The notes under the pieces are model-generated. The model ran no database searches. It saw only the letters and a program-made list of their open reading frames with translations, and was not told where the DNA came from. Shown here one piece after another: positions 877 to 7,118 of a stretch of DNA of 64,000 nt. The position numbers and the translations under genes are program-made. This DNA is from a virus. Every line of letters starts with the position of its first letter. The first letter of the stretch is position 1. Location: positions 1-64,000 of the IMG/VR virus record IMGVR_UViG_3300021181_000006; one strand, 5' to 3'.

Positions 877-1389
877 ATGGACAATGATTTACATCAAAAG
901 CCGAAAGGCAAGTACATGAATCCAGCACGTGCCCGTTCTCGTCTAGAGAAACTCAAGAAAATCTATGATCCGATCCAGGAATCGATGAAGAAGAACCGCG
1001 ATGAAGCGGCTGCTCTCCATGTCCTCAATGACAAGGAATCAGCTTCTCTCTCATCTGTCTCAGAAGACGATGCCGCTATCCGTGAATCTCTCCAAAACGA
1101 GATCGTGGAGCGCTCATCCCGCATCCTCATCTTGGATACGGCCTTCCATGATACCATGACGCAGAATGCCGAACTGATTCGTCGTTTCCATGTGGCAGAA
1201 GTCACGCTTCGTCGCAAGATCTTGGAATATCCCGCCAAACTGCGCAAGCATTTGAACCGTGGTCTCAAAACCGAGACTCGTGGTCCGAAGGACATGTTCA
1301 ATGCCAAGGAAGAGCGTCGTGTTCTGCTCGCTGCAGAAGCAGAAAAGACGCCACAACAGCAGTTAGCAGCTGCTTTGTCAGGGACCTAA
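877..1389 (+). CDS. Hypothetical helical protein (170 aa)
   Basis: Long ORF, charged helical composition, coherent codon usage. Confidence 0.7.
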   Translation: MDNDLHQKPKGKYMNPARARSRLEKLKKIYDPIQESMKKNRDEAAALHVLNDKESASLSSVSEDDAAIRESLQNEIVERSSRILILDTAFHDTMTQNAELIRRFHVAEVTLRRKILEYPAKLRKHLNRGLKTETRGPKDMFNAKEERRVLLAAEAEKTPQQQLAAALSGT

Positions 1390-1393
1390 GTTT

Positions 1394-1594
1394 CCTATGC
1401 AAGCGGACAACCCGAATGCATAGTAGCCTCTCCATCTGATCCGTGTGGAGTTGTAGCATGCTGCTGAATCCCGTGGTATGATTAGGACTTGCAATCCGTC
1501 ATATTCGGACCTATTCGGCAGAAACGGACACGTTTTCAGGTGACCACTATAGCGCTTCACCACTTGTTTACTCAAGTTCTTGGCGTTATAGTGG
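1394..1594 (+). ncRNA. Unidentified structured RNA with 3' pseudoknot, directly upstream of tmRNA
   Basis: Helices 1395-1401/1417-1423, 1430-1434/1446-1450, 1461-1469/1513-1521, 1477-1481/1499-1503, 1522-1526/1531-1535, 1539-1543/1557-1561; loop 1544-1554 pairs with 1584-1594 (11 bp). Confidence 0.55.
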
Positions 1595-1609
1595 TTATCG
1601 TTCTTTCAT

Positions 1610-1985
1610 GGGCCTGATTAGCTTCGACGGGAATTGTGAAATAAGAGTGAGCCGTGTCGTAGAGCTTGTGGCTACGTAAAAAACAAGCAAAAAATGTAAA
1701 TGACGATTCCGTCACTTACGCATCTGCCCGTCTCGCTGCCTAACCGCAGCCTGGCTCACAGGTGTCCAATCTGCAACATACGGGTGCTTCTACCGTTGCA
1801 GATCATCAGAAGATCGTCGGCCTAGGAACTGGAAAACCTAGGGACTAAATTCCATCTCGGTCCAGCACAATGGGTACCGTAAACTCGAAATGCTAGGTGA
1901 TCATTCCAAATAATGATATATACACGGTAGAGCACACTATAGATCGATTCTCGGACCTGGGTTGCGAAACCCAGCAGGTCCACCA
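1610..1985 (+). ncRNA. ssrA: tmRNA (transfer-messenger RNA)
   Basis: 5' GGGCCTG pairs with 3' CAGGTCC-ACCA including G3-U wobble; GATTAGCTTCGACGGG D-like region; T-arm CTGGG/CCCAG; internal tag frame ending LAA-stop. Confidence 0.95.
1696..1743 (+). other. tmRNA tag reading frame VNDDSVTYASARLAA* (resume codon could instead be GCA at 1687)
   Basis: Translation of 1696-1743; ND start and LAA end typical of proteolysis tags. Confidence 0.8.
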
Positions 1986-2027
1986 TTTGTAATTTCAGTG
2001 GCACGTGTGTACCTACTAGCAATAGTA

Positions 2028-2164
2028 GGAGTTCCTCTGATGAGTCTGCTTAAACTCCAGACGAAACCGATCAGTGAAGACGAGTGTTCTCTTCACATAG
2101 GTGGGCGTACTATTACAGAATTAACACACTCTGTACCTGTAACCTGCCTGATTGGTAAGGAAAT
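2028..2164 (+). ncRNA. Type I hammerhead ribozyme with 73-nt insertion in stem III; predicted cleavage after A2157
   Basis: CTGATGA 2037-2043; stem II GTCTG/CAGAC; GAAA 2063-2066; stem III ACCGATCAG 2066-2074 / CTGATTGGT 2148-2156; GUA triplet; stem I TTCCT 2032-2036 / AGGAA 2158-2162. Confidence 0.85.
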
Positions 2165-3250
2165 GCTTGGATCAGACATCGGAAGTCGGTGCCAGGCCTA
2201 GACCACGTGCTTACCGTGTGTTCTAGTAGTCTATTGTCAGTCCAACCATAGGGAGCACTAGCGGTGACAGATGATTCCTGTTCGTTGCTGCTCTCAGCCC
2301 TCATAGACGGCAAATAAGTTTTTAATGACCAGAACTGAATGGTCAGAGCGAACTAACGGTAAGACGTATTTTTGAAGGTATTTTGGAGGACCACGGAGCC
2401 ATCCAAAGGCCCTCCTAGAGAGGTAGCCTAACTCTGTGGTGAAGACCACGACTCGGGGTGCAAAGCCAGGGATACCTTCTTTCTTTCAAACCATCAACCA
2501 AAGGAAGACCATGTTCAGAAAAGGACTCTACGACATAGAATTCGTTTTTGGTCTTGTGAAAGCTCCAGAAGAGAGAGTATTGGTTGATGGAGATATCATG
2601 AATACCAAATCGTTACGCATGCGTACTTTTGCTTATAAAGGCATTCATTGCGTGAATTGTGAAAGGTATGGCAGGGGTTTCGTTAAAGAGAAACATCACG
2701 CTTCGGATCAGACGTATCATTTTGCCCTCTATCACTGGTATAACGATGATAGAGAGCCTATGATACTGATGACAAAAGATCATATACTACCCATTTCAAA
2801 AGGTGGTCGTGATTTTCTTGGTAACATGCAACCCATGTGTGCGGTGTGTAATTTTACCAAAGCAGGAGATCCTCTTCCTGTTGGTGTGAAGTTCACTCCC
2901 AATGAACTATTTCTTCGTATTCCGCTATCCAGTCCCACTATGACCTCTTAGGTGAGCTGCGTTCATGCTCTTTGCAGCATGAAGCCAGTAGCGAGATCCT
3001 AAGTGCGTCGGGATGATAGACGTGAAGAATGGATAGACAGACACTCAGGTAAGTCCAAGCGCGCTCTTGCTAAGGGTGAAATGCTGAGCTGAATGGGGTG
3101 CGAGTCGCAATGCCCGACACTGTTCGGGGATAGGAGCACGCGCCATGCAAAGATTCCTGCATCGTTAGCCGGACTTAGAGCCGGCCACTCTGATTGACTT
3201 CAGATATACATGAAGCAATCTATAGAGCAATAATATACACGAAAGAGTCC
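2158..3250 (+). ncRNA. Candidate large structured ncRNA (about 650 nt excluding the HNH ORF)
   Basis: ORF-poor and helix-dense flanks at 2158-2510 and 2952-3250; pseudoknot 2210-2217/2356-2363; long-range helices 2414-2424/2943-2952 and 3050-3056/3171-3177. Confidence 0.55.
2511..2951 (+). CDS. HNH endonuclease (McrA-like, Zn-binding), 146 aa from ATG 2511
   Basis: CVNC...TKDHILPISKGG...NMQPMCAVCNFTK motif; AAGGAAG RBS at 2501-2507. Confidence 0.88.
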   Translation: MFRKGLYDIEFVFGLVKAPEERVLVDGDIMNTKSLRMRTFAYKGIHCVNCERYGRGFVKEKHHASDQTYHFALYHWYNDDREPMILMTKDHILPISKGGRDFLGNMQPMCAVCNFTKAGDPLPVGVKFTPNELFLRIPLSSPTMTS

Positions 3251-3287
3251 ATGCAGTATCCTACGAAAGTAGGGTACTGCATTTTTT
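3251..3287 (+). terminator. Rho-independent terminator
   Basis: ATGCAGTATCCTAC-GAAA-GTAGGGTACTGCAT followed by a T run. Confidence 0.85.
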
Positions 3288-3299
3288 AGATACCACACC

Positions 3300-3482
3300 A
3301 TGACTGATAAACATACAGTAACCCTCGAATATCAAGTGCAGCAAGCTCGTCTTGTTAAACAATTACGCGCAGAAAACTCTCGATTACGAAACCGACTGAA
3401 AGAGCTATTAGAATATGAACGACAAAGAGATGCCGAAATCGCAGCCAGCGACACAAGTAGTGACCACATCATGCCCTATTGA
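3300..3482 (+). CDS. Small coiled-coil hypothetical protein
   Basis: 60-aa ORF with heptad-like pattern. Confidence 0.5.
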   Translation: MTDKHTVTLEYQVQQARLVKQLRAENSRLRNRLKELLEYERQRDAEIAASDTSSDHIMPY

Positions 3483-3633
3483 GCATGGTGAGTTTAAGGT
3501 CAGTGTCAGTGAAGCTGAAGCATATTTCGAGAAATATGGCTTATATATGATTAATGGAGGTTTGAAGAAAACCACGCCATCAGAATCGGATCATCAATCT
3601 GATGCAGACGATACGCCTGATATAAGTGTATAA
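3415..3633 (+). CDS. Small hypothetical protein
   Basis: 72-aa ORF overlapping the previous one. Confidence 0.4.
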   Translation: MNDKEMPKSQPATQVVTTSCPIEHGEFKVSVSEAEAYFEKYGLYMINGGLKKTTPSESDHQSDADDTPDISV

Positions 3634-5566
3634 AGTGTTCCGCTGGCGTATCGTGTGACTTTTCTGGATGTATGACACCAGCTTTAGAGAGAGTTTCCAT
3701 TTCATGGAAGCTCTCTCTAAAAATGGGATAGAGTAACTCACCTTCACGGTGCAAAATAACATCTCTAGGATCCTCTTCGTCTTGAGGATCAATAAATAAG
3801 ATATTTTTCTCTACTTTGGATTCCATATTCCCGGGTAATGGAGTAAAAATAATCTTATCAAAGATGGTTTTTTTACCTATGCCTCGTAACCATGGGATAA
3901 ATTCTATAGGAGCATTCTCAAACTTACCGACTGAAACGCTGACTGGCATATCACGGTGTTTAGGCCGATAAGCACCTAATCCAAAGTGTGGTACAAAGGT
4001 TCCACGACAATTACTTGACAGGATACCTTCAGCCCAATACGATGATGTCATCGTATGGAGATCATACACATGCCCAGTATAATCGAATCTTTCGATACCA
4101 ATAATTTTCAACGGGACTATCTCGCCGGAATATCCATCCAACAGCTCGCTAATAATTTTGGAATCGGAAAGACAACTGTTCATCGTAAGCTGAGACAGCT
4201 CGGCCTCAAAAAAAGAGGTCTTATCGACAAAAATTCCGTTATCAGCAGATATATTGCTGGCGAGTCTGCTCTTGAGATAGCTCTGTCCATTCGTGTCAAT
4301 AAAATTACTATTTATAAAATCCTTCGTGAGCATGGTGTCCCAAGACGGTCCACTGCTCATGCTAATACTTTGAGAATGCAGAAGTTGAGCAAGGAAGATC
4401 GCCTTCTGCTCACGAATGCTGCCCACGCCGCCGTCAAAGGACAGTCCAGAACGAAAGAGGAACTTATCCAGAGAGCTAAAACGCGACAGGAGCGAAGTGT
4501 CATTGAATCCAAGGGCGAAAGGATTATGCTCGACTGGCTCAGAGAAGCCGGATTGCATTGTACTCCACAACTCGCTATTGGACCGTATAATATCGATGTC
4601 GCCGTTCATGAAAATGCCATCGCCGTGGAAATCTTTGGAGGAAACTTCCATACGGCTGGCGCTCATGCTGCTTTGTTTCGAGAAAGAACTGATTTTCTCC
4701 TGAATTCTGGTTGGTTGGTTATTATTGTCTGGGATATTAATAGATCTTGTCCATTGTCCAGGGCTGCATCCGATTACATCACTGCCCTCACGAAGATCAC
4801 CCGCTCTCATATACCCATGTGGTGTCAAGAGCATGTGATTAACGGTAACGGACAGCCTTCTTCCATCGGCAAGAATCAACTTAACTACAGGGCCTTTGTA
4901 GGAGGCGACAAATCCTTCGACGATATTATGATCACATCCAGCTGATACAATGGTGTCTGGCAAGACACAGTTTGGGTGTGAATCATGGGTGAGTGGGAAG
5001 GTATAAGACAATAGCTTACGAATATCGTGAATAGTCCCATTAAGAACCCGACAAATTGGACTCGTTCTATCATCATGGACCTCCATACGACGGCAAAGTG
5101 TGAGTCCGTCTTCTAAGAATTCTGACAGGGCTGCTTTCGCATAAATATTCATCGCAGCAGTACGAGCTACAGTGCGGTTATGTCCAAGAACCTGTTTTAC
5201 CGACTGGCCAGTGCGAAGACGGTCTTTAATGTAATCAGATTCTCTAGGACGCGCATTTAACTCCTGGAGCATACCATCGAGATCTTTCTCGTAATCGTAT
5301 GAACCAATACGTAGTTCTGAGGTCTTTATGAGACCTAAGAATCCCTGTGCCCAGTGTCTTCCAGCCATGGCTGCAGCACGCACCAGAGGCAGCACTGAGC
5401 TACGCTTCAACTCCCCGCCTGCCTCAGCAATACCCTTGGAAGCCGCCAGGATCGATTTGATCTCTGCAGGGTGTACTCCACTGGTCAGTGTACGAGTAAG
5501 TGCGTCCACGGGCTTCCTAGAATCCCAGGATCGGAGTCTTGAAGTCTTCGGTATCAGGCGCTTCAC
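3551..5566 (-). CDS. MuF/SPP1 gp7-like head morphogenesis protein containing an intein
   Basis: DDRTSPICRVLNG...HPN|CRGTF motif reconstituted after intein removal (351 aa spliced). Confidence 0.85.
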   Translation of the reverse strand: MKRLIPKTSRLRSWDSRKPVDALTRTLTSGVHPAEIKSILAASKGIAEAGGELKRSSVLPLVRAAAMAGRHWAQGFLGLIKTSELRIGSYDYEKDLDGMLQELNARPRESDYIKDRLRTGQSVKQVLGHNRTVARTAAMNIYAKAALSEFLEDGLTLCRRMEVHDDRTSPICRVLNGTIHDIRKLLSYTFPLTHDSHPNCVLPDTIVSAGCDHNIVEGFVASYKGPVVKLILADGRRLSVTVNHMLLTPHGYMRAGDLREGSDVIGCSPGQWTRSINIPDNNNQPTRIQEKISSFSKQSSMSASRMEVSSKDFHGDGIFMNGDIDIIRSNSELWSTMQSGFSEPVEHNPFALGFNDTSLLSRFSSLDKFLFRSGLSFDGGVGSIREQKAIFLAQLLHSQSISMSSGPSWDTMLTKDFINSNFIDTNGQSYLKSRLASNISADNGIFVDKTSFFEAELSQLTMNSCLSDSKIISELLDGYSGEIVPLKIIGIERFDYTGHVYDLHTMTSSYWAEGILSSNCRGTFVPHFGLGAYRPKHRDMPVSVSVGKFENAPIEFIPWLRGIGKKTIFDKIIFTPLPGNMESKVEKNILFIDPQDEEDPRDVILHREGELLYPIFRESFHEMETLSKAGVIHPEKSHDTPAEHFIHLYQAYRLHQIDDPILMAWFSSNLH
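4015..4060 (+). promoter_or_regulatory. Sigma70-type promoter, palindromic operator and RBS for the antisense endonuclease
   Basis: TTGACA 4015-4020, 17-nt spacer, TACGAT 4038-4043; ATACGATGA-TG-TCATCGTAT 4037-4056; GGAG 4057-4060, 9 nt before ATG 4070. Confidence 0.75.
4070..4945 (+). CDS. HTH-repeat + Vsr/DUF559-like endonuclease nested antisense within the intein (291 aa)
   Basis: Two HTH motifs (ISIQQLANNFGIGKTTVHRKL; SALEIALSIRVNKITIYKIL); PYNIDVA...AVEIFGGNFH...LLNSGWLVIIVWD nuclease motif. Confidence 0.88.
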   Translation: MPSIIESFDTNNFQRDYLAGISIQQLANNFGIGKTTVHRKLRQLGLKKRGLIDKNSVISRYIAGESALEIALSIRVNKITIYKILREHGVPRRSTAHANTLRMQKLSKEDRLLLTNAAHAAVKGQSRTKEELIQRAKTRQERSVIESKGERIMLDWLREAGLHCTPQLAIGPYNIDVAVHENAIAVEIFGGNFHTAGAHAALFRERTDFLLNSGWLVIIVWDINRSCPLSRAASDYITALTKITRSHIPMWCQEHVINGNGQPSSIGKNQLNYRAFVGGDKSFDDIMITSS

Positions 5567-5738
5567 AAGGCTCTGTATACTTCAGTACGATCAGCTTTTC
5601 GTTGGCTTTGGTGATATGGGTCTCGTTAGCGACACCCTCTACACCTTGAGCCGATAGGATCTCGCCATAACGGTCTCGATCCGTACTGACGTCCAGATCG
5701 AGAACTTCAACCTTATGATTTCTCTGTGTATTCATCAT
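5517..5738 (-). CDS. Small hypothetical protein upstream of MuF gene
   Basis: GAGGTGG RBS before ATG 5738; overlaps the MuF start. Confidence 0.55.
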   Translation of the reverse strand: MMNTQRNHKVEVLDLDVSTDRDRYGEILSAQGVEGVANETHITKANEKLIVLKYTEPCEAPDTEDFKTPILGF

Positions 5739-5789
5739 AACCACCTCTCTACGAGTATATCGTAGATTTACAAACAAGGAAGACTCATT

Positions 5790-6278
5790 ATGTTACGCAA
5801 CGCTACGCTTATGAAAGAACTGACTATCCGCTTCTCTGGCCCAGTCAGAATTATCAAGGATCCAAAGGCGATCACACCGTCTATCAGCGGTATCTCTTAT
5901 CTAAAGCCTCATGAGTACGAGATTGAGAATCGTTTCTTGATTAAGAAGCTCGGTTTACATCGCCAAGTCTATGGCAAAGCCATGCACCGAATCGCCATCA
6001 AGAATAATCTGCAGGCTGGAACCGGTGTTCGGATCTGGTTTTCTCAGTCGAAGACGCGTCATGGAATCGACATGATCAATGATAATGGTACGCTCCTGTT
6101 CATGTACAACAACGAGTTGTTTAAGAGCATCCGCGCCATCATCTACTTCATCACCGGTCAGTATCCCGCAAGCCTTGGAGATACGTTCCATGCCTGTGTC
6201 GATGGTAAGGGTAGGGATCTCAGCTACTACCTCACCATGATCAGTCTCTATCATTACAAGAACAAGAAAGTGGCGTAA
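5790..6278 (+). CDS. Hypothetical protein
   Basis: 162-aa ORF with AAGGAAG RBS. Confidence 0.65.
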   Translation: MLRNATLMKELTIRFSGPVRIIKDPKAITPSISGISYLKPHEYEIENRFLIKKLGLHRQVYGKAMHRIAIKNNLQAGTGVRIWFSQSKTRHGIDMINDNGTLLFMYNNELFKSIRAIIYFITGQYPASLGDTFHACVDGKGRDLSYYLTMISLYHYKNKKVA

Positions 6279-6368
6279 CTTGGTATAAGTTCAATGATGG
6301 TCCTTCGGGACTGTCATTTTTTACTATTTATAAATACTACAATTATTAACCCAGGTTAAGGTTAATGA

Positions 6369-7118
6369 ATGATTTCTCTGTCTTATAAAGCATCTTCGAA
6401 TGCTCCGTACCATATCACACATGTCGATAAAAACGCTCATGTGCAAACTCATAGTAAACTCAGGGAATCTTTTATTTCCGGTGAGTTAAATGTTTCTACT
6501 ATGCGAATGGAAACTATTATGACTCCACTTAAAAATGGAGTTAGTGATGTCAGGGTCTATCGTACTTATGGTCAACGCAGAAATATGCCATGGCCGAAAC
6601 GTATGCCTGTAGAACCTAAACTCTTCATACAGACTCCTGGTCCTATTTGGCAAGTAAAAATCGGTTGTAATATCGATGGTTATGTACGTTATCTGAGTCG
6701 TGATCGTTCTAGCGAAAGTAAAGATACATTAGCCTTTAGTCATATCAACGATCTGCTCAACCACTTCTCTCTGCATTGGAAATCTTCTGAAACCAAGAGT
6801 GTCTATGATCAGGCAGAAATCATAGATAATGGTACATTAATGACTCTGAGAGAATTTCTCGGATTCCGTGGTAACAGATGCTCTTATGAACGTGTATTTG
6901 TACCAAAGAAGAATTTCTATGCATTACATAGCGATGTCTTCCATCATCCTGATGATGCGTCAGAGAAGGTATCAGTCAATATAGCTTATGGATATACTAA
7001 CCCTGAAATTATTACGGTAAATGATCGTTCTGGTAAGGAATGGATTGCTATCGATCCATTCCTAGAATTTGTCCATAATGTCAGCCGTCGTCCTTTATCA
7101 GAGTATGTCAAGACTTGA
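6369..7118 (+). CDS. Hypothetical protein (AT-rich island)
   Basis: 249-aa ORF. Confidence 0.65.
   Translation: MISLSYKASSNAPYHITHVDKNAHVQTHSKLRESFISGELNVSTMRMETIMTPLKNGVSDVRVYRTYGQRRNMPWPKRMPVEPKLFIQTPGPIWQVKIGCNIDGYVRYLSRDRSSESKDTLAFSHINDLLNHFSLHWKSSETKSVYDQAEIIDNGTLMTLREFLGFRGNRCSYERVFVPKKNFYALHSDVFHHPDDASEKVSVNIAYGYTNPEIITVNDRSGKEWIAIDPFLEFVHNVSRRPLSEYVKT

Follow-up and report, generated by a model that had tools for sequence, protein, structure and literature searches.

In the IMG/VR virus record IMGVR_UViG_3300021181_000006 (184,466 bp), of which the first 64 kb (64,000 nucleotides, hereafter the window) were analysed, a gene of the MuF-like minor-capsid family very probably carries a composite, two-strand mobile intein, in which a class-1 splicing element lies on the minus strand and a Vsr-like homing-endonuclease gene occupies the -1 antisense frame of the same DNA. 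Inteins are usually described as elements in which one polypeptide both splices and homes; here the splicing and homing functions would be written on opposite strands of one DNA stretch. The source is a large soil phage (CheckV completeness 94%, GC 42%), near-identical DNA of which is found in several soil metagenome runs, and blastn of window positions 3000-6500 against GenBank phages gave zero matches, no near relative having been sequenced. The preliminary description, made from the letters of the window, had proposed a two-strand mobile element at this place; the functional-looking Hint domain and nuclease on opposite strands stand, whereas the novelty implied for them was overstated, since Gosselin, Arsenault and Gogarten (bioRxiv 10.1101/2025.01.02.630785) have described class-1 inteins with a 'VSR -1 ORF' (open reading frame) in Gordonia phages, where they interrupt minor capsid proteins of the MuF-like type. 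As the kind of element is already published, the window contributes another member and detail, not a new principle. Its features are as follows (aa, amino acids; nt, nucleotides; pLDDT, predicted local distance difference test; HTH, helix-turn-helix).

3551..5566, minus strand: ORF of the MuF-like head-morphogenesis precursor, 671 aa from GTG 5566
4970..5566, minus strand: N-extein, aa 1-199, ending ...THDSHPN
4010..4969, minus strand: class-1 intein, exactly 320 aa, with C1, T42-x-x-H45 (block B), GHVYDL at 299-304 (block F), S319-N320 and C+1
3551..4009, minus strand: C-extein, 152 aa plus stop, beginning CRGTFVP
4754..4969, minus strand: confidently predicted part of the Hint N-lobe, intein residues 1-72 (residues 84-132, at 4574-4720, with moderate confidence)
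4124..4573, minus strand: intein middle, residues 133-282, Ser/Leu/Phe-rich and predicted disordered (pLDDT 24-38)
4010..4123, minus strand: Hint C-lobe, intein residues 283-320, with blocks F and G (pLDDT 72-94)
4070..4945, plus strand: nuclease ORF, 291 aa, stop TGA 4943-4945, wholly inside the intein
4076..4336, plus strand: two resolvase/Hin-type HTH domains, about aa 3-49 and 49-89
4499..4897, plus strand: Vsr/EDxHD-type nuclease domain, aa 144-276, with the family-invariant E150, D176, E187, H194 and R206
4057..4072, plus strand: putative translation-initiation region of the nuclease, GGAG 4057-4060, 9-nt spacer and ATG 4070, within block-F codons
4015-4043, plus strand: promoter-like TTGACA-17-TACGAT, sigma-70-like, 10/12 consensus matches, within block-G codons (a consensus match)
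4037-4056: 9-bp perfect inverted repeat within the codons of intein blocks F/G

An intein and an antisense nuclease gene in register

The intein has the N-terminal Cys, the C-terminal Asn, the Cys at +1, the blocks B, F and G and the predicted Hint fold of its class. Its junctions in the minus-strand protein read ...HPN|CVLPDT... and ...EGILSSN|CRG... (the bar marks the junction), block B reads T42-V-N-H45, and C1, T42, H45, N320 and the +1 Cys are kept in 6/6 aligned inteins. In the structural model the Hint N-lobe reaches pLDDT values, per block of ten residues, of 84, 59, 90, 93, 83, 80, 82, 41, 66, 78, 69, 59 and 72. The C-extein aligns with those of two metagenomic relatives, P0019 and P0020. 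The start codon of the MuF gene at 5566 is uncertain, because in the relatives P0018 and P0019 the protein starts some 22 codons later.

The plus-strand ORF matches the Pfam families HTH_7 (E 7.4e-8, above the cut-off), MTES_1575 (E 1.4e-7) and DUF559 (E 0.008). AlphaFold (AF2, with an 18-sequence alignment) predicts two HTH domains, a helical linker and a Vsr/EDxHD-type nuclease, with a mean pLDDT of 81.7, residues 10 to about 260 folded and a disordered tail at 267-291. Foldseek with the whole nuclease model returned nothing at E <= 1e-3, because a multi-domain model dilutes the score; structural re-alignment of the model gave clear Vsr matches, and the Vsr-type fold is predicted confidently. 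The five residues listed above for the nuclease domain are invariant in alignment A1 (18 homologues, 31-61% identity), and are consistent with the acidic and His active-site residues of the family. A longer form of the ORF, 4055..4945 (296 aa), would start from an alternative ATG at 4055 that has no Shine-Dalgarno (SD) sequence; the N-terminus of the 291-aa form, MPS..., aligns with the MPR, MPA or MT of homologues.

The two frames share codon boundaries, the plus ORF being frame -1 relative to the intein, and residue k of the plus product (counted from ATG 4070) lies opposite intein residue 301-k. The plus ORF therefore covers intein residues 10-300, a stretch that takes in both block B (T42-x-x-H45) and block F (G299-H300-V-Y-D-L). 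With this geometry, TTA, CTA or TCA in one frame places a stop codon in the other. The plus ORF, with 26 Leu and 22 Ser codons, contains none of these three codons, although the codon usage of the genome predicts 14.1 (P ~5e-8). The minus frame between intein residues 10 and 300, with 25 Leu and 44 Ser codons, likewise has none against an expectation of 19.0 (P ~2e-10). TCA occurs just three times in the whole intein: at residue 9, which is the stop of the plus ORF, and at residues 309 and 318, both of them 5' to the plus start codon. Among the 124 other genes of the 184-kb genome, the longest stretch over which an in-register antisense frame stays open is 180 codons, and the antisense frame is thus open far beyond chance. 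These results bear out what the preliminary description had read from the sequence: a 320-aa minus-strand intein with intact splicing blocks and, in register on the plus strand, a 291-aa HTH-HTH-Vsr/DUF559-like nuclease that uses no TTA, CTA or TCA codon and whose ends overlap both Hint halves.

Candidate expression signals of the nuclease are embedded in the splicing blocks. ATG 4070 is the reverse complement of the codon for His300, and the GGAG(G) SD sequence derives from the Asp-Leu-Gln codons of block F; a layout of SD and ATG like that of the window is also present in the related loci L002, L003, L016, L006 and L005. In 43 of 80 related IMG/VR loci, the first ATG likewise pairs, as its reverse complement, with the His codon of xH[VILMA][YFHW][DN][LIFVM], mostly GHVYDLQ; an SD-like motif lies upstream in 53 of the 80. 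Promoter-like hexamers stand at the spot equivalent to that of the window in L002 (TTGACA-17-TATAAT, a perfect match), L018 (TTGATA-17-TATGAT) and L014 (TTGCAA-17-TATGAT). As consensus matches, these promoter and SD signals are putative. The uncoupling of homing from late expression of the host gene, proposed in the preliminary description, is plausible.

Selection on both frames and occurrence in other phages

In the -1 register, the third codon position of the plus frame is the first position of the minus frame, and vice versa, so that substitutions can be assigned to the frame that tolerates them. Three independent sets were compared: the window with locus L013, three Gordonia phages, and three enterobacterial phages. 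At the intein ends outside the plus ORF all differences fall at minus third positions (25:0 in Gordonia, 18:0 in the enterobacterial set) and minus amino acid identity is 1.00; the last 20 intein residues in relatives likewise change at minus third positions only, again with a minus amino acid identity of 1.00. In the middle (from residue 71 to 50 residues before the end), differences favour the third positions of the plus frame, with counts across the three sets of 129:47 (binomial p 5e-10), 136:81 (2e-4) and 92:66 (0.05), and amino acid identity is higher in the plus than in the minus frame, for example 0.83 vs 0.54. Over Hint residues 9-70, which lie opposite the last 60-80 residues of the nuclease, either neither frame clearly prevails or the intein frame does. 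Soil run X2 holds a strain variant that gives a similar picture within a population: outside the overlap all 8 minus-frame single-nucleotide polymorphisms (SNPs) are synonymous, whereas those inside it are mostly intein-synonymous opposite Hint residues 62-82 and mostly nuclease-synonymous further in.

These comparisons indicate that purifying selection acts on both frames and that the dominant strand switches along the element. The substitution pattern by strand therefore marks the intein middle as the antisense shadow of the nuclease gene, as the preliminary description had supposed; the middle also has pLDDT values below 50, lacks any family match, and its substitutions fall at minus first positions. 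The nuclease tail is conversely, in large part, a shadow of the Hint N-lobe. Between the two shadows both products are predicted to be structured, over at least intein residues 41-72 and possibly 84-132. A degenerate in-frame endonuclease in the intein middle was considered as well and rejected: the Ser/Leu/Phe-rich composition of that segment, its pLDDT of 24-38, the lack of a Pfam or PHROG match and the minus-strand first-position substitutions all speak against it.

The nuclease has 17 protein homologues with 31-61% identity, and wherever their DNA could be read (7 metagenomic places) the gene is antisense within an intein that interrupts a MuF-like gene at HP(N/Q)|C(R/E)C; directly downstream of these metagenomic host genes, scaffold and capsid genes usually follow. 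In IMG/VR, a pattern search from the single protein found nothing, and an alignment-based search found 331 loci that encode a relative of the nuclease. Eighty of them were retrieved (L024-L103, the 80 loci counted above), and in 80/80 no stop interrupts the in-register antisense frame anywhere along the match; their junctions read HPN| in 44 of the 54 that are recognisable and |CRC in 31 of 47.

Among GenBank phages, tblastn gave 120 records with a match, including 62 of Salmonella Jerseyvirus, 15 of Gordonia and 15 of Pseudomonas phages, with Klebsiella, Escherichia (Snoke), Vibrio, Pantoea and others as further hosts. The matches listed lie almost all beneath genes annotated as MuF, head-morphogenesis or minor-capsid genes, or beneath unnamed genes. 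Twelve cultured-phage loci, spanning Salmonella, Escherichia, Pantoea, Pseudomonas, Klebsiella, Vibrio and Gordonia, were read frame by frame; in all twelve both frames are open and the match is opposite the annotated gene. The intein-embedded nuclease is unannotated in each of these 12 records, including that of Snoke, whose intein is annotated. Annotation pipelines thus miss such genes, and an annotator may then mistake the intein middle for a 'decaying endonuclease domain'. The enterobacterial versions have a single HTH and about 225 aa, and the Klebsiella version has an altered GG-x-H motif. Truncation was considered for the Jerseyviruses, some copies of which show 48% tblastn coverage, and was set aside, the one such copy that was read (UPWr_S5) having an intact ORF. 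A distant relative in Acinetobacter phage P1068 (OQ689089, L022; 25% identity, E 1e-12) is free-standing. There the pair of genes at 1306-2199 (+) and 2193-2969 (-) is convergent, the nuclease gene overlapping the 3' end of an uninterrupted MuF gene (Phage_Mu_F E 7.6e-12) that holds no intein. This free-standing copy is the only annotated one, as a hypothetical protein, and its convergent arrangement is a plausible ancestral or progenitor state.

The exteins occur both with and without the intein. Twenty relatives of the N-extein fall into two length classes, of about 324-387 aa (intein-less) and about 632-675 aa (intein-bearing). The exteins of P0019 (646 aa, intein included) and P0020 (324 aa, ...SHFN|CRCTF...) agree at 80-81% of their residues, with the insertion point exactly between Asn and Cys; the intein-less homologues read through the site as HFNCRC (P0020), HPACRG (P0021) and HPRCRG (P0024). 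Such presence and absence in close relatives is the pattern expected of a homing element, although precise loss may be an alternative explanation of it.

These data refute the idea that the plus ORF is open by chance and that its domain matches are spurious. In-register antisense frames are indeed those most often open by chance, and GC-rich relatives such as those of Gordonia and Pseudomonas have many long spurious ORFs; yet the codon statistics under the usage of the phage's own genome, the shorter maximum among its other antisense runs, the confidently predicted Vsr fold, the homologous proteins and IMG/VR loci and the purifying selection on the plus frame all go against a chance origin.

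Points against a functional composite element

Several observations count against a working two-strand element, and some of them also speak for one of two further explanations. According to the first, which we regard as very improbable, the minus frame is not a working intein, MuF is disrupted, a pseudogene or made otherwise, and the locus is a nuclease gene only. The Pfam family Intein_splicing (PF14890) scores 29.0 bits against a gathering score of 35.8 (E 1e-6) and thus remains below the cut-off, because the match is broken up by the long middle, which is not homologous. At the penultimate position of the intein, an atypical Ser replaces the usual His, and the C-extein begins with CRG vs CRC. 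The N-extein of the window has weak matches only, to Phage_Mu_F and phrog_115; for Phage_Mu_F the score is weak because the domain is interrupted by the intein, and the intein-less P0020 passes this family (30.3 vs 29.6 bits, profile positions 35-111 of 112), the match ending at the insertion site. Against a dead intein stand the absence of all 19 expected stop-generating codons from the minus frame, the strict minus-frame purifying selection on intein ends and exteins, and the equivalent arrangement in MuF genes of viable cultured phages.

According to the second explanation, the plus ORF is a decayed or domesticated remnant in an intein that is now inherited vertically, or does another job, as a DNA-binding regulator or exclusion nuclease; this is unlikely, though less so than a dead intein. 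The scores of the plus ORF for MTES_1575 (31.9 vs 38.2 bits) and DUF559 (16.5 vs 20.6) are both under the gathering scores. The canonical ATG is lost in two relatives, L018 (795-1751; GPVYDL, with AGG) and L004 (4511-5347; VSVYDF, N-terminally divergent); alternative GTG or TTG starts may be used there, or the nuclease gene may be starting to decay, and with the ATG missing in some relatives the gene therefore seems to be decaying in some lineages, possibly here. The altered GG-x-H motif of the Klebsiella version goes in the same direction. Soil DNA runs over the region contain no joint that skips 4010-4969 and no intein-less form of the phage, a result that, like the stretches without cover, is uninformative in itself. 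Over window positions 3300-5800, the X2 strain differs at 18 sites in the 876-nt overlap and at 10 in the other 1625 nt; this roughly threefold higher SNP density in the overlap may be due to relaxed constraint, or to the intein having had its own history. Two soil metatranscriptome libraries yielded contigs over 4440-5264 and 5547-5724, one of which bridges the junction of N-extein and intein, and these contigs are no evidence of expression, because they carry no strand information and DNA carry-over is possible. The remnant explanation is also favoured by several VSR-type MuF inteins that look vertically inherited according to Gosselin et al.; two of their clusters, on the side of mobility, have a distribution like that of horizontal transfer.

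The remnant explanation has to be set against the third-position bias, which signals purifying selection on the plus frame in three lineages, the putative catalytic residues that are invariant across the 18 homologues, the frame that is open in every one of the retrieved loci, and the closely related exteins with and without intein. A useless plus gene would gain stops fast, because the choice of Leu and Ser codons in the minus frame is its sole protection. The composite, mobile intein is the explanation we retain as very probable.

Known relatives, proposed mechanism and neighbouring genes

The Gordonia inteins of Gosselin et al. (named members are Vivi2, Angelicage, Affeca, Fosterous, Malisha, Sampson and others) are the closest known system. 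In these the antisense product matches Vsr structurally over residues 144-267 and the in-frame middle is unstructured; their cluster-60 site reads ...VIN|CRC, and the authors propose that a free-standing endonuclease gene invaded the intein. The nuclease of the window matches Fosterous, Affeca, Angelicage and Vivi2 by tblastn (E 3e-28 to 3e-30, 32-33% identity, 89-90% coverage), in each case opposite the annotated MuF gene. The shared traits are the MuF extein, the N|CR site, the class-1 intein, the antisense -1 nuclease and the unstructured middle, and by sequence the element of the window is a divergent homologue of this known kind at an equivalent site. It differs in that its carrier is a 184-kb soil phage with 42% GC, and not an actinophage, and in the identity of about 33%. 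Gosselin et al. state that -1 ORFs typically lie outside the splicing domain; in the window and the relatives examined the start of the ORF lies within block F and its body extends across block B, so that the two coding functions physically overlap.

Other systems share part of this design. Antisense LAGLIDADG endonuclease genes in inteins have been noted since Gorbalenya (1998), as cited by Gosselin et al., the examples named there being Synechocystis DnaX, a Chloroflexus SpoVR-like protein (Gorbalenya, 1998; Gogarten et al., 2002) and Gordonia minor-capsid inteins. They share the two-strand logic of a separate endonuclease gene opposite an intein that must stay open, and differ in nuclease family, LAGLIDADG instead of Vsr/EDxHD-like with HTH domains. 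In the fractured genes described by Dassa et al. (2009; PMC2677866), split inteins have a free-standing Vsr-like or GIY-YIG endonuclease gene between their halves. Alike are the separate gene for a Vsr-like putative homing endonuclease, the phage-like DNA and a coding sequence that overlaps the neighbouring intein part; the differences are that there the host gene and intein are split and spliced in trans, the parts keeping their parent orientation and locus, while the intein of the window is contiguous and its nuclease antisense. I-Bth0305I (EDxHD, PDB 3r3p), encoded by a group I intron, and E. coli Vsr (PDB 1cw0, 1vsr), a repair enzyme, are both without a tandem HTH N-terminus and are not antisense to an intein. 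The relative in P1068 is alike in being a distant nuclease homologue at MuF, and differs in being free-standing without an intein.

The mechanism that we infer combines splicing, a nuclease of a given activity and target, its independent transcription, and homing. On the minus strand, the head-morphogenesis gene would be translated into the 671-aa precursor, in which a class-1 Hint domain would assemble from intein residues 1 to about 72-132 and 283-320, excise the 320-aa intein and ligate HPN to CRG, which would leave a spliced MuF of about 351 aa; the intein middle, 150 residues long, would serve as a disordered tether whose sole requirement is the absence of stop codons. On the plus strand, the 291-aa protein would be translated from its own SD and ATG in block-F codons, and possibly transcribed from its own promoter in block-G codons. 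In a mixed infection, the nuclease would recognise and cut intein-less MuF alleles at or near the coding sequence of HPN|CR(C/G), and recombinational repair off the intein-bearing genome would copy the whole element. An antisense nuclease may permit a timing of homing that is independent of the late structural gene.

Whether this element is best understood as an obligately co-adapted two-strand unit, and not as a nuclease sitting in a dispensable linker, is evenly balanced in our judgement. Such a unit would combine the block-F ATG and SD, the promoter-like hexamers in block G, and some 30-100 dual-fold codons that specify parts of both the Hint N-lobe and the Vsr core, with strand dominance switching at about intein residue 70-100. 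It would have reached phages of Actinobacteria as well as of many Proteobacteria, its range also taking in soil and other metagenomes, with 331 loci in IMG/VR, and would probably have originated from a free-standing nuclease gene convergent with MuF, as in P1068. None of these points is made in Gosselin et al., whose scope is actinophages; more generally, we found in the literature consulted no prior account of spread outside actinophages, strand-switching selection, placement of the translation signals within block F, an ORF that overlaps the splicing blocks, or a free-standing MuF-adjacent relative.

The element offers a natural example of antisense dual coding over 291 codons, in which selection can be measured in both frames, and it bears on how inteins acquire endonucleases, namely by a free-standing gene invading a splicing element. 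It also provides a genetic handle: changing an intein Leu or Ser codon to TTA, CTA or TCA kills the nuclease while the intein protein stays unchanged, and the reverse works equally.

The surroundings of the MuF gene contain further features of the phage. A full-length, phage-encoded transfer-messenger RNA (tmRNA) gene lies at 1610-1985 on the plus strand (Rfam RF00023, 101 bits, E 1.8e-38), and the 170-aa ORF at 877-1389 just 5' of it has no Pfam match. Between the tmRNA and MuF genes, an ORF at 2436-2951 on the plus strand encodes an HNH endonuclease (Pfam HNH, HNH_5), a further nuclease, putatively mobile, that lies no more than 1.5 kb from the intein. The MuF ORF is overlapped at its start by an 86-aa ORF of the same orientation and without Pfam match (5517-5777, minus strand), and a small gene of 66-89 aa is found at the same place, directly upstream of MuF and overlapping its start, in L018, L019 and the contigs of P0019 and P0020.

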